This document shows positions 59,208 to 60,710 of a stretch of 64,000 nt of DNA, one piece after another. Origin of the DNA: Escherichia coli 042. Its GTDB lineage: Bacteria > Pseudomonadota > Gammaproteobacteria > Enterobacterales > Enterobacteriaceae. A program made the translations under genes and the position numbers. The stretch lies in assembly GCF_000027125.1 (NCBI RefSeq), contig NC_017626.1; one strand, 5' to 3'. The notes beneath the pieces were generated by a model. The model did no database searches. It was given only the letters and a program-made list of their open reading frames with translations, and was not told the DNA's origin. Each line of letters opens with the position of its first letter. Position 1 is the first letter of the stretch.

Positions 59208-59772
59208 TGCCTTAAATGTTAACCACGGTCGAAATCTGACCGCTGGCTTGACTGCATGACCACAGCCACTGTGGATTGCCGCAACCGACCGCAAGCCACG
59301 AATAAGAACGACGGCGAATTTCGAATCGTTACCTGATGCACTGGCTTCCCAGCGTTTGACCGTAGCGTTAAGTAAATCAACAAAAGCGATGTTCACCGCT
59401 TATCGTCAAGTCGTGCCATTTGTCAGCCAGGATCGGGTCTTTACCCCGGATATTGCAGCATCGCAAAAATTCTTAGAGGGATATGCTATAAATCAAAAAT
59501 AAAATCTTTGTTGATTGTTTATCATAATATCCACAGATATGATAAATGATATCAATTTAATAATTTTCACTTAATGTGATTCCGGATAATTCGAAAGGCG
59601 CTGTGCTTTTCGGATTATTATTATCTGATTAAGATATTTGTCACGCTAGGCTTACTGGGTTATAAATGTCAATCATGATTCTTATAAATTATTTATTGCT
59701 GCTTTGGTTACCATTACTTCGTAATAAGTAATGTATTTTTGATGGTTTAAACTATTTTTAAGGGACGGCATT

Positions 59773-60678
59773 ATGCGAGGGAAAATACCTAAAACGGAAC
59801 TGCTGGTGACTTTTGAGGTCGTCGCACGTCATGAAAGTTATACCAGAGCGGCAGAGGAGTTAGCGTTAACCCAAAGTGCAGTATTCAGACAAGTGAGTGC
59901 GCTGGAGGAATTTTTACATACTCCGTTATTTTCACACTCTAAAAAATGTATTTTTCTTAATGATGCAGGGAAGTATTACCTGGGGATAGTAAAAGAAACA
60001 TTAAATAAGCTGGAACGCGATACCAATACCATTATGACCTGGCAACCTACAGTTAAGGTTATTGAACTTGCCGTGAATCCTACGTTTAGTACCCACTGGT
60101 TAATCCCAAATTTACATGAATTCACAAAGTTACATCCCGATATTATTGTTAATATTCACTCTTTAGCTAATAACGGCGATTTTCTTAATCGGGAGTACGA
60201 TGCTGTCATTATGCGCGAAAATTTTTGCGCGCCCTGGGCGGAAGTAGAATATCTCTTTGATGAGGAGATTTTGCCGGTATGCAGCGGCAGTTTGCTTGCA
60301 ATGTCCGATCAAAAACTGTCAGTGGCAGAACTGCTTACTGAGTTACCACTTCTGCATCAAAGCACCCGTATTACTGGCTGGGAAGAGTGGTTTGCTTTAT
60401 CTGGCGTTAGCAGTCCGCTGGTCAATAACGGACCACGTTTCGATTTGCTTTCAATGCTGATTGCCGCCGTGCGCTCTAATCTCGGCGTGGCGCTGTTACC
60501 ACGGTTCGCTATTCAACATGATTTGGATAGTGGCGATATGGTGATTCCCTGTGATGTGCCTATTCGTACCGGTAATCGTTTTATTATGACGTGGCAGGAA
60601 GAGAAGTCTGACTCGCCGCACTTGCAGCAATTTCGTGAATGGTTGCTGGCGAAATCGGTCGTACCGCAGGAGATGTAA
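59773..60678 (+). CDS. LysR-family transcriptional regulator, 301 aa (not present at this locus in K-12)
   Basis: N-terminal HTH signature ...YTRAAEELALTQSAVFRQVSALEE...; C-terminal LLPRF co-inducer domain; low-GC coding sequence preceded by about 370 bp of A/T-rich DNA. Confidence 0.85.
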   Translation: MRGKIPKTELLVTFEVVARHESYTRAAEELALTQSAVFRQVSALEEFLHTPLFSHSKKCIFLNDAGKYYLGIVKETLNKLERDTNTIMTWQPTVKVIELAVNPTFSTHWLIPNLHEFTKLHPDIIVNIHSLANNGDFLNREYDAVIMRENFCAPWAEVEYLFDEEILPVCSGSLLAMSDQKLSVAELLTELPLLHQSTRITGWEEWFALSGVSSPLVNNGPRFDLLSMLIAAVRSNLGVALLPRFAIQHDLDSGDMVIPCDVPIRTGNRFIMTWQEEKSDSPHLQQFREWLLAKSVVPQEM

Positions 60679-60679
60679 A

Positions 60680-60710
60680 ACCTGCGCCTGGCGGGATGCC
60701 AGGCGCAGTT
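60680..60710. terminator. Bidirectional terminator between the convergent LysR gene and the adenosyltransferase gene
   Basis: CCTGCGCCTGGC-ggga-GCCAGGCGCAGG perfect inverted repeat in the 33-bp gap between the two stop codons. Confidence 0.7.

Follow-up and report, generated by a model that had tools for sequence, protein, structure and literature searches.

The window analyzed here is a 64,000-nucleotide stretch of Escherichia coli 042 (contig NC_017626.1), near the end of which the list of open reading frames (ORFs) places a plus-strand gene for a LysR-type transcriptional regulator (LTTR) of 301 amino acids (positions 59773 to 60678). The predicted protein contains the Pfam domains HTH_1 (PF00126; E = 3.1e-17; residues 9 to 67) and LysR_substrate (PF03466; E = 4.3e-28; residues 96 to 293), which, together with its length, place it among the LTTRs, and it is 98.3% identical to its orthologue ECs0755 of strain O157:H7 Sakai. 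The top NCBIfam match was GcvA (NF008352; 219.7 bits; E = 4.5e-65), but identity as GcvA was ruled out because this score falls below the curated cutoff of 288.

Three genes were found on the minus strand. The first encodes a cobO/btuR-type cob(I)yrinic acid a,c-diamide (corrinoid) adenosyltransferase (60712 to 61314; Pfam CobA_CobO_BtuR; NCBIfam NF004637, 295 bits against a cutoff of 185), which would provide adenosylcobalamin for glutamate mutase. The second, fumD (61324 to 62976), encodes a class I fumarate hydratase homologue (NCBIfam NF011921, 1282 bits against a cutoff of 1060) and is the same gene as ECs0757; FumD is a mesaconase/fumarase by biochemistry (Kronen and Berg 2015, PMC4682846). 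A gap of 107 bp (62977 to 63083; 38% GC) separates it from gltP, and in this gap an internal promoter is possible and no conserved motif 5' of fumD was found. The 3' two-thirds of gltP (63084 to 64000), which encodes a dicarboxylate/amino-acid:cation symporter (Pfam SDF; E = 3.7e-78; the "GltP" of Kronen and Berg), fall in the window; the gene runs past the window end, and its full length of 1281 bp and the genes upstream of it are visible in two other E. coli loci (L001 and L086). An Rfam search over positions 58900 to 64000 at a permissive threshold returned no match. Convergence of the LysR gene (plus strand) with cobO-fumD-gltP (minus strand), as described in an earlier reading of the letters alone (the sequence-only reading), is borne out directly by the ORF coordinates, but the "transporter-hydratase-adenosyltransferase operon" of that reading is not a complete unit and is really the three-gene end of a methylaspartate-pathway cluster of nine genes.

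The 33-bp gap separating the LysR and cobO stop codons is occupied by a perfect hairpin at 60682 to 60708, CTGCGCCTGGC-GGGAT-GCCAGGCGCAG, with an 11-bp stem and a 5-nucleotide loop (sequence, terminator scan, and folding). Stretches of 51 nucleotides containing the hairpin folded at -27.3 and -28.1 kcal/mol, with z-scores relative to shuffled sequences of -5.1 on the plus strand and -6.3 on the minus strand, and the hairpin is equally stable on the plus strand. In a consensus scan, the hairpin was called as an intrinsic terminator on the minus strand only (tail, GTTTTACATC), where the 11-bp stem has 9 G-C pairs and is followed by the U-tract tail GUUUUACAUC; the plus-strand tail, UUAUUACC, has 4 U residues in 8 and lies under the scan threshold. 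The hairpin likely terminates transcription of the minus-strand cluster and probably also that of the LysR gene. Of its earlier description as a "perfect bidirectional hairpin terminator," the perfect stem stands, and the bidirectional part is plausible yet just half supported, because the plus-strand tail misses the threshold. Folding of the LysR-cobO gap from other genera also revealed a GC-rich hairpin, unrelated in sequence and mostly REP-like; in Pseudescherichia and ESNIH1, this gap is merely 3 bp.

The methylaspartate-pathway island and its layout across genera

In homologous E. coli loci, the full nine-gene cluster reads glmS-glmL-glmE-mal-atuA-DUF4387-gltP-fumD-cobO. The genes glmS-glmL-glmE encode a B12-dependent glutamate mutase and its reactivase, mal encodes a methylaspartate ammonia-lyase, and gltP, fumD, and cobO supply the transporter, the mesaconase, and the corrinoid adenosyltransferase of the island. 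The genes beyond the window end lie directly upstream of gltP in three E. coli loci (L001, L086, and L004) that match the last 5.1 kb of the window at 98 to 99%. In the window itself, the island is recognizable by a FumD-type class I fumarase gene that adjoins genes for a corrinoid adenosyltransferase and a glutamate-type (SDF) transporter.

The island is a known system that has already been published. The same island was described in E. coli O157:H7 (ECs0755 to ECs0764) by Kronen and Berg (2015; PMC4682846), and the LTTR is drawn as a putative regulator in Fig. 5 of that paper. No condition that expresses the cluster was found there for the O157:H7 strain, the enterobacterial island was noted to be without citramalate lyase, and the fate of citramalate was left open in 2015 (PMC4682846). 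By published counts, roughly 20 to 25% of E. coli and the majority of O157:H7 strains carry the island. Literature searches for the pathway and the locus tags ECs0755-0764 and Z0885-Z0895 returned Kronen and Berg (2015) alone, a review of island-encoded O157:H7 regulators contains no mention of this LysR regulator, and the literature that could be searched yielded no ChIP, binding, or expression data on ECs0755-0764.

The border of the conserved core is marked by a terminator hairpin after sucD on the plus strand (59183 to 59200; terminator scan, GGCCATCGTATGATGGCC then TTTTTTATGC), and homology to K-12 stops at ~59210, just past this terminator (blastn against K-12 and megablast). Where the window has the island, K-12 has mngRAB. 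Between sucD and cydA, mngRAB is found in K-12, a TPR pseudogene in Nissle, and the island elsewhere, in some cases together with an rtcB/hut module; 1121 of the 5426 complete E. coli genomes carry the island (megablast). This variable presence at a fixed site between conserved core genes, an insertion or replacement that is directly observed, is that of a genomic island. Horizontal acquisition, which the sequence-only reading had proposed from low GC content, is thus supported by presence and absence and not by base composition.

Citrobacter, Salmonella, Klebsiella, and other genera also have the cluster. An unbiased scan of a genome collection, seeded with the ammonia-lyase, produced 80 loci. 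In 31 of these, a LysR orthologue (≥70% identity) lies at the tail of the cluster and is convergent with it; these loci belong to Escherichia, Citrobacter, Salmonella, Klebsiella, Raoultella, Buttiauxella, Enterobacter, Lelliottia, Pluralibacter, and Pseudescherichia. The cluster is the sole conserved neighbor of the LysR gene, with the neighbor on the other side varying by genus; no conserved divergent partner was found 5' of the LysR gene, where the neighbors differ in every genus. In 9 loci, homologues with 44 to 64% identity precede glmS and are encoded on the other strand. The Paludibacterium and Azoarcus homologues are directly divergent from glmS (190 to 290 bp apart), and the Yersinia homologue is divergent from sumT-kinase-glmS...gltP. 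The linkage of the LysR gene and the cluster thus persists across genera and rearrangements. Morganella and Hafnia have the enzyme genes without this regulator, an occurrence that counts against a regulator dedicated to the island.

Divergence from the target operon, which is a common but not a defining trait of LTTRs, is seen neither here nor in the 31 related loci. In its enterobacterial form, the island conserves this arrangement, with a convergent LysR gene at the tail, and the orientation that the earlier reading had singled out as an anomaly is the same across about ten genera. The 31 convergent loci and the divergent distant homologues at glmS make it most likely that the LysR protein serves this cluster as its regulator; the orientation of the gene is ordinary. 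As a structural oddity, the convergent gene has no importance; this is the normal layout of the published island.

Base composition and the DNA upstream of the LysR gene

On the minus strand at 59205 to 59305 are remnants of rtcB, consisting of its last codons (...PAVRFRPWLTFKA and the stop codon) and an internal piece, identified by blastn against the locus of strain N-01 (L004). Positions 59050 to 59246 of the window correspond to 2077 to 2274 of the N-01 locus (97%), positions 59249 to 59305 correspond to 2450 to 2506 (91%), and the C-terminal RtcB peptide matches. The 3' remnant of a gene of the HAL/PAL/TAL family (histidine ammonia-lyase-like) follows on the plus strand at 59309 to 59502, identified from matches to the same locus and from its C terminus. 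Positions 59309 to 59369 match 11588 to 11648 of the N-01 locus, the match from 59365 on corresponds to 11992 onwards, and the translated remnant (...STKAMFTAYRQVVPFVSQDRVFTPDIAASQKFLEGYAINQK and the stop codon) agrees with the HAL C terminus. Judged from these alignments, the rtcB remnants are the residue of deletions in a longer form of the island, and the HAL remnant is part of a hut module, which a minority of strains retain intact.

The order in strain N-01 is hutU-permease-hutD-hutI-hutG-HAL and then the LysR gene, all in one orientation, and no hutC-type repressor is annotated in the hut module. The window retains remnants of the module only, and the LysR gene might once have belonged to it and now be an orphan after its deletion. 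Such a history is very improbable: rtcB and hut are intact in just 144 of 5426 complete genomes, versus about 1120 with the regulator and the cluster, and no HAL or HutU match lies beside the regulator in the 31 tail-end loci of other genera.

The spacer of about 370 bp assigned to the LysR gene by the sequence-only reading is AT-rich as claimed but is not all spacer, since 59309 to 59502 is a gene remnant; the true intergenic region covers 270 bp (59503 to 59772; ~28% GC), and nowhere else in the window are 300 bp as AT-rich. The counterpart of this region is AT-rich in most other sampled genera (28 to 37% GC) and can be aligned between genera over its last ~40 bp only. The LysR promoter presumably sits in 59503 to 59772, where a consensus scan of the plus strand found no match to the sigma-70 consensus.

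The GC content of 59400 to 59772 is 31.9%, within the lowest 0.35% among 373-bp windows of the 64 kb, and that of 59470 to 59772 is 28.1%. The LysR gene has a GC content of 44.5% (39% in the first half and 50% in the second; GC3, 0.44), compared with 53 to 56% for sucABCD, and the regulator and its 5' DNA are indeed low in GC relative to the suc genes. The GC profile was normal for cobO (53%), fumD (49%), and gltP (52%) relative to the whole window (52%); the AT-rich DNA comprises the regulator and the intergenic DNA only and does not extend across the island as a whole. Since the LysR gene lies 5 to 10 GC points under the enzyme genes in most genera with the cluster, its low GC content is a trait of the gene itself and no sign of a separate origin.

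The consensus of the high-affinity H-NS nucleation motif is tCGaTAAATT. No match with ≤2 mismatches was found in 59400 to 59772, and the frequency in the window overall was 1.67 per kb. The promoter DNA is AT-rich relative to the genome, as expected of xenogeneic DNA (28 to 32% GC 5' of the LysR gene and ~30% upstream of glmS). AT-richness and the published nonexpression of the cluster fit a hypothetical silencing by H-NS, which the sequence-only reading had considered possible; the missing H-NS motif in the spacer does not.

The candidate operator and the role of the regulator

Ahead of glmS, 118 to 132 bp from its start codon and ~6.9 kb beyond the end of the window, lies a dyad, TTGA-N7-TCAA (a T-N11-A box). 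The 21-mer that contains it, TTTTGAAAATAGATCAATTGC, occurs in 36 loci with no more than one mismatch, whereas the adjacent promoter DNA is poorly conserved. It is the only strongly conserved T-N11-A dyad among the regulatory regions of the cluster, and the near-invariant 21-mer is the best candidate for the LysR operator. The site tracks the regulator, being identical where the orthologue has ≥70% identity, altered in Yersinia (~63%), and absent in Morganella and Hafnia. Yersinia retains TGA-N7-TCA upstream of glmS and has a related sequence, TTGC-AGAGAGA-ACAA, upstream of a separately placed fumD-cobO unit. The 21-mer is absent from the window, where the best match has 7 mismatches. With the only strongly conserved dyad located this far beyond the window end, the earlier suggestion that the target promoter lies outside the window is probably correct.

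A metagenome scan gave at least 120 matches to the 18-mer core of the site; among the matches listed, every enterobacterial one was at a glmS promoter: at least 21 were upstream of glmS, and at least 4 more had the same flanks on contigs that end before glmS. The remaining matches among those listed were chance occurrences in low-GC environmental contigs, and no extra regulon members (e.g., citramalate lyase) were found among the matches listed. The enterobacterial dyad is absent from the beta-proteobacterial LysR-glmS intergenic regions, which share another motif, ATATCGTTTGC, and therefore do not help to define the enterobacterial operator.

Bare T-N11-A motifs numbered 59 in the 576 bp 5' of the LysR gene, compared with 53 expected from base composition, and raw counting was rejected as a test, with chance frequencies everywhere in four noncoding regions of the cluster. 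A bare T-N11-A search can neither support nor refute LysR regulation in AT-rich DNA, and a box within the window, which the sequence-only reading had named as grounds for refutation, is uninformative. TGA-N7-TCA dyads are present in all three E. coli regulatory gaps; those 5' of gltP and of the LysR gene were rejected as chance occurrences, being unconserved in other genera or Escherichia sp. E1V33, and the one 5' of the LysR gene (at 59512) is unconserved even in the E1V33 locus. No convincing copy of the dyad was found upstream of the LysR gene itself. Its absence counts against the LysR protein acting at the glmS dyad, as a copy is expected under autoregulation.

The noncoding gaps of 160 bp 5' of gltP and 107 bp 5' of fumD could hold further promoters, a point against control through the glmS dyad. 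If these internal promoters in the window were its targets, the LysR protein would control adjacent genes only (gltP and/or fumD-cobO), and the glmS promoter would answer elsewhere. The TGA-N7-TCA in the gap 5' of gltP points this way, as does Yersinia, in which the LysR gene forms a contiguous, codirectional run with fumD and cobO, with a conserved motif 5' of fumD. Such local control is clearly unlikely, given that the sole near-invariant dyad is the one at glmS. The dyad 5' of gltP is unconserved in other genera and lies in a gap dominated by hairpins with compensatory changes, and no tail-end-type locus has a related motif 5' of fumD, where Citrobacter and Salmonella carry REP-like repeats.

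CRP and FNR consensus sites use N6 spacing. The N7 spacing between TTGA and TCAA is unlike this and agrees with the T-N11-A architecture of LTTR sites. Two loci with no LysR gene within 10 kb (L044 and L051) carry versions of the site with 4 to 5 mismatches; the dyad could be another factor's site, and this counts against its assignment to the LysR protein. The 21-mer would then belong to a different protein, such as a global regulator or nucleoid protein, with the LysR protein acting elsewhere or as an operator-less counter-silencer. The cluster is AT-rich at both ends (~28 to 30% GC), and its expression was found under no condition by Kronen and Berg (PMC4682846), which fits silencing. Covariation of the site with the regulator, together with its spacing, argues for the LysR protein instead and makes a different protein rather unlikely.

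Several observations bear on whether the island is cryptic or decaying in this lineage, with a regulator that is nonfunctional or irrelevant. Expression of the cluster was undetected in an O157:H7 strain (PMC4682846), IS1 elements lie in or near the LysR gene of some strains (megablast matches H1 and H7), and the loci of Escherichia sp. E1V33 and E. whittamii have no gltP and a degraded cobO. The LysR protein encoded in the window has a private R59C substitution in its DNA-binding domain (codon TGT at 59947 to 59949), at a position where, of the other 14 sequences in the comparison, 13 have R and 1 has K. The Cys allele was found in 0 of 5426 complete genomes, and Arg in the same sequence context was found in 434. 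R59C may impair the protein, which in this strain counts against a working regulator of the island. Decay is nonetheless quite unlikely: all island ORFs inside the window are intact and full length, the LysR protein is 98 to 99% identical to the copies of other strains, and residue position 59 varies across the LTTR family at large.

The preferred reading, with a probability of roughly 0.6, is that the LysR gene encodes a dedicated regulator of the methylaspartate (mesaconate) island that activates the cluster via the dyad at glmS. The regulator would be made from its own AT-rich promoter region (59503 to 59772) and, as a typical LTTR, would bind TTGA-N7-TCAA upstream of glmS, ~10 kb from its own gene, with glutamate, methylaspartate, mesaconate, and citramalate as candidate coinducers. 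Activated transcription would cross the cluster and end at the hairpin between cobO and the LysR gene. We propose tentatively, at slightly short of even odds, that a cryptic glutamate-to-citramalate pathway, enriched in pathogenic E. coli, has its missing switch in the LysR protein acting through this site 10 kb away. If so, the cluster could be forced on with a regulator that is constitutive or overexpressed, or through screens for inducers with operator-reporter constructs, and the questions of 2015, when the pathway is expressed and what citramalate becomes, would be settled. A defined regulator with a sharply conserved candidate operator offers a direct experimental handle on island expression.

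Comparison with known systems

The O157:H7 island (ECs0755 to ECs0764) has the same gene order as the window and the same site after sucD. The window copy differs from the account of Kronen and Berg in its private R59C, and PMC4682846 contains no discussion of the orientation, the operator, or the rtcB/HAL remnants 5' of the regulator. The clostridial clusters glm-mal-mesAB-citDEF (PMC4682846, Fig. 4) share glutamate mutase S/E, the reactivase, methylaspartate ammonia-lyase, and a class I fumarase-type mesaconase with the enterobacterial island but differ in having a GntR-type regulator, a two-subunit mesaconase, and citramalate lyase genes.

As in bidirectional terminators of convergent gene pairs, the GC-rich perfect stem between the LysR gene and cobO fills the stop-to-stop gap and has T-rich flanks on both sides. 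Such bidirectional intrinsic terminators are hairpins that the two genes of a convergent pair share. Unlike full bidirectional terminators, the putative terminator described here has the U-tract recognized by the scan on its minus-strand side alone.

GcvA is both the best-scoring curated family and the closest solved structure (8y6u; E = 7.6e-43) for the LysR protein, and it acts on gcvTHP, an operon that is not adjacent to gcvA. GcvA differs from the LysR protein in genomic context and presumed ligand, and the score of the match lies under the cutoff.

Classical divergent pairs of an LTTR and its operon include TtdR-ttdABT, BenM-benA, and CbnR-cbnA. These regulators are, like the LysR protein, proteins of ~300 amino acids with HTH_1 and LysR_substrate domains, and their recognition sites are interrupted dyads of the T-N11-A type upstream of the catabolic operon. 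The Paludibacterium and Azoarcus homologues resemble the classical pairs in being directly divergent from glmS. In Escherichia, Citrobacter, Salmonella, and Klebsiella, unlike in the classical pairs, the gene is convergent and lies at the far end of the cluster, ~10 kb from its candidate operator.

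The regulator and its island

The gene at 59773-60678 (plus strand) was predicted to encode a 301-aa protein with the two domains that define LysR-type transcriptional regulators (LTTRs), HTH_1 and LysR_substrate, and the protein was 98.3% identical to ECs0755 of Escherichia coli O157:H7. Its nearest solved structure was GcvA (8y6u); identity as GcvA was rejected (219.7 bits versus a cut-off of 288). The genes facing it on the minus strand encode a corrinoid adenosyltransferase (cobO, 60712-61314), a class I fumarate hydratase (fumD, 61324-62976), and a dicarboxylate/amino acid symporter (gltP, 63084 onwards, running off the window end). 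The convergent layout and coordinates of the sequence-only reading, with a perfect hairpin between the stop codons, were confirmed. The extent of its three-gene transporter-hydratase-adenosyltransferase operon was misjudged, as these genes are only the tail of a longer cluster. In homologous loci, the minus-strand genes extend past the window end in the full order glmS-glmL-glmE (methylaspartate/glutamate mutase genes), methylaspartate ammonia-lyase, an AtuA-family gene, DUF4387, transporter, hydratase, and cobO, followed by two hypothetical genes and cydA. The two hypothetical proteins (140 and 314 aa) between glmS and cydA, at 21405-22853 of L001 (an E. coli locus with the full cluster), form the island's far end and had no Pfam match.

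The locus is the glutamate fermentation cluster of E. coli O157:H7, ECs0755-ECs0764, published as a methylaspartate-pathway cluster by Kronen and Berg in 2015 (PMC4682846). In that study, FumD was shown to be a mesaconase/fumarase, cluster expression was seen under no condition tried, and the fate of the pathway product, citramalate, was described as unknown (PMC4682846). No later literature characterizing the regulator was found.

The view that this DNA was acquired held up. The island lies directly downstream of sucABCD, and the whole 58900-64000 stretch was present in 1,121 of 5,426 complete E. coli genomes (megablast); in K-12 and most other genomes only the first ~315 bases matched, followed by mngR instead. 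The low GC content assigned to the regulator and its upstream DNA was likewise borne out (44.5% and 31.9%, respectively, versus 53 to 56% for sucABCD), with cobO, fumD, and gltP at 49 to 53% and the window mean at 52%. In most cluster-carrying genera, too, the regulator was 5 to 10 points lower in GC than the enzyme genes and was preceded by AT-rich DNA. Elsewhere in the window, 46650-47150 was as AT-rich as the DNA upstream of the LysR gene (~28 to 33% GC over 300 bp).

The sucD-cydA interval is a variation hot spot in E. coli genomes (loci L002 to L005), holding mngRAB in K-12, a TPR pseudogene in Nissle, and elsewhere the glutamate island with or without rtcB and hut-like genes. The island also adjoins sucD in Pseudescherichia, Salmonella arizonae, and E. 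whittamii. IS1 elements were found in or beside it in E. coli strains MEW and JX21CE8, and in the latter the match to the window ends inside the LysR gene (~60365). Escherichia sp. E1V33 (L008) and E. whittamii (L067) lack gltP and carry a degraded cobO between fumD and the LysR gene, with the same hairpin retained beside the regulator. The sucB-sucC gap (56798-57071) was 274 bp in the window and K-12 versus 93 bp in strain H52_982342, which suggests a variable REP-type insertion.

Compared with strain N3, its closest relative, the regulator gene had two base differences. One is nonsynonymous (R59C, CGT to TGT, codon 59 at 59947-59949) and falls in the DNA-binding domain, within the wing. Residue 59 was arginine in 13 and lysine in 1 of 14 other regulator sequences compared (down to 44% identity); among LTTRs at large, this position is variable. 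The 41-mer centered on the change was found in none of the 5,426 complete E. coli genomes with TGT and in 434 with CGT, so that, across these genomes, R59C is private to the window's strain. One rival reading is that in this lineage the island is cryptic or in decay.

Orientation and linkage across genera

With one genome searched per species and the ammonia-lyase, rather than the regulator, as the seed, 80 loci were obtained, on which the cluster genes were placed by tblastn. In 31 loci, an orthologue of 70 to 92% identity lay at the cluster tail, convergent as in the window; these came from Escherichia, Citrobacter, the Klebsiella oxytoca group, Raoultella, Buttiauxella, Enterobacter, Lelliottia, Pluralibacter, and Pseudescherichia, as well as Salmonella enterica subsp. 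arizonae and diarizonae. The neighbor on the regulator's other side varied by genus (sucD or assorted unrelated ORFs), leaving the cluster as its sole conserved neighbor. Nine further loci carried homologues of 44 to 64% identity that precede glmS and are encoded on the other strand; those of Paludibacterium and Azoarcus form directly divergent pairs with glmS. In Yersinia (L043, L045, L047, and L049), LysR-fumD-cobO run one way and a tetrapyrrole methylase, a GHMP-family kinase, and glmS to gltP run the opposite way; in Yokenella, the regulator is ~5 kb off. Morganella and Hafnia had the enzyme genes and no such regulator within 10 kb. The linkage persists across several rearrangements, so the regulator travels with the cluster. 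The convergent orientation had been read as a departure from the usual divergent layout; it recurs in 31 loci from about ten genera and is the standard enterobacterial form, with a divergent form in relatives.

The hairpin between the convergent genes (60682-60708) has a perfect 11-bp stem and a 5-nt loop inside the 33-bp stop-to-stop gap, with folding z-scores of -5.1 and -6.3. Of the bidirectional terminator proposed there, the minus-strand half stood: the hairpin passed a consensus terminator scan on that strand only, and the tail on the plus strand has U at 4 of 8 positions. The convergent gaps folded from other genera contained a GC-rich hairpin of unrelated sequence, mostly REP-like; in Pseudescherichia and ESNIH1 the gap is just 3 bp.

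DNA between sucD and the regulator

The ~370-bp spacer described upstream of the regulator is AT-rich (59400-59772, 31.9% GC, within the lowest 0.35% of same-size windows) and proved to be composite. Homology to K-12 stops at ~59210, directly past the sucD terminator hairpin. In strain N-01, the LysR gene is separated from sucD by rtcB (minus strand) and a hut-like module (hutU, a permease, hutD, hutI, hutG, and a HAL-family lyase gene). The stretch at 59205-59305 matched two pieces of N-01 rtcB, and 59309-59502 is a 3' remnant of the lyase gene (histidine ammonia-lyase family), including its last 40 codons and stop. This leaves 270 bp of true intergenic DNA (59503-59772, ~28% GC). The rtcB and hut module was intact in just 144 of the 5,426 genomes, making the deleted form found in the window the commoner one; judged by these remnants, the common form arose by deletions from the longer one. 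Glutamate is both a product of histidine breakdown and the substrate of the neighboring pathway. A rival reading, in which the regulator was orphaned by loss of the hut module, is unlikely, since no other genus among the mapped loci had hut genes at the regulator.

Upstream of the LysR gene and facing the other way is a sigma-70-like match (GTGACA-16-AATAAT, 10/12; 59617-59644, minus strand); ~220 bp downstream of this match, a terminator-like hairpin (59384-59401, minus strand) falls within the lyase gene remnant. Neither coincides with an ORF or a known RNA family, and both are probably chance matches.

A candidate operator upstream of glmS

Counting T-N11-A motifs, the search put forward for locating the target, was uninformative: 59 were observed versus 53 expected in the 576 bp upstream of the regulator, and the other three noncoding gaps of the cluster were also at chance. 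Phylogenetic footprinting of the glmS upstream regions from 17 loci showed most columns to be poorly conserved and one 21-bp block, TTTTGAAAATAGATCAATTGC, to be essentially invariant. Across 36 loci from about ten genera, this 21-mer (L001 20971-20991, minus strand) was either identical or differed at a single position. Within it lies the dyad TTGA-N7-TCAA (L001 20975-20989, 118 to 132 bp upstream of the E. coli glmS ATG), a T-N11-A box whose ATAC-N7-GTAT architecture is typical of the sites that LTTRs recognize. Next come a conserved GACACTCC block and TATTAA; TATTAA could be a -10 element, which would place the dyad center near -56. The candidate operator would fall at ~70.87 kb in window coordinates, 6.9 kb past the window end and ~10 kb from the regulator stop codon. 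No copy was found within the window (best match, 7 mismatches), in keeping with the earlier expectation that the target promoter probably lies outside it.

The regulator may instead control only the adjacent tail genes, or the 21-mer may be bound by another factor. The TGA-N7-TCA at 59512, ahead of the regulator, was not conserved, nor was the one preceding gltP. In Yersinia, where the regulator is ~63% identical, TGA-N7-TCA is retained upstream of glmS, and a related TTGC-AGAGAGA-ACAA, conserved in four species, precedes the separately placed fumD-cobO unit. In a metagenome scan, the 18-bp core lay upstream of glmS in at least 21 contigs, and at least 4 further contigs had the same promoter flanks and ended before glmS. 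The other matches listed were chance occurrences in low-GC environmental contigs, with no second enterobacterial target among them.

Under the favored reading, control from the glmS side, the regulator would be expressed from 59503-59772, bind the dyad upstream of glmS, and, together with a co-inducer, activate a transcript that would span the closely spaced genes and terminate at the 60682-60708 hairpin. Intergenic gaps are ≤19 bp from glmS to DUF4387, then 160 bp before gltP, 107 bp before fumD, and 9 bp before cobO; separate internal promoters are conceivable. The 160-bp gap (L001 14466-14627), which lies shortly past the window end, contains one or two GC-rich hairpins with compensatory stem changes between genera (in E. 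coli, for example, GATGCCTGAAT...ATTCAGGCATC); these may attenuate transcription internally, serve as a processing site, or stabilize the mRNA. Silencing by H-NS, also raised from sequence, is a possibility compatible with the strong AT-richness of both promoter regions (regulator and glmS) and with the published lack of expression; the spacer upstream of the regulator had no match to the high-affinity H-NS motif, and no reports of H-NS occupancy or hns mutants were found for the island genes. The locus is the already known O157:H7 island, and the candidate operator and conserved regulator linkage offer a concrete route to switching on a pathway whose expression has so far proved elusive.
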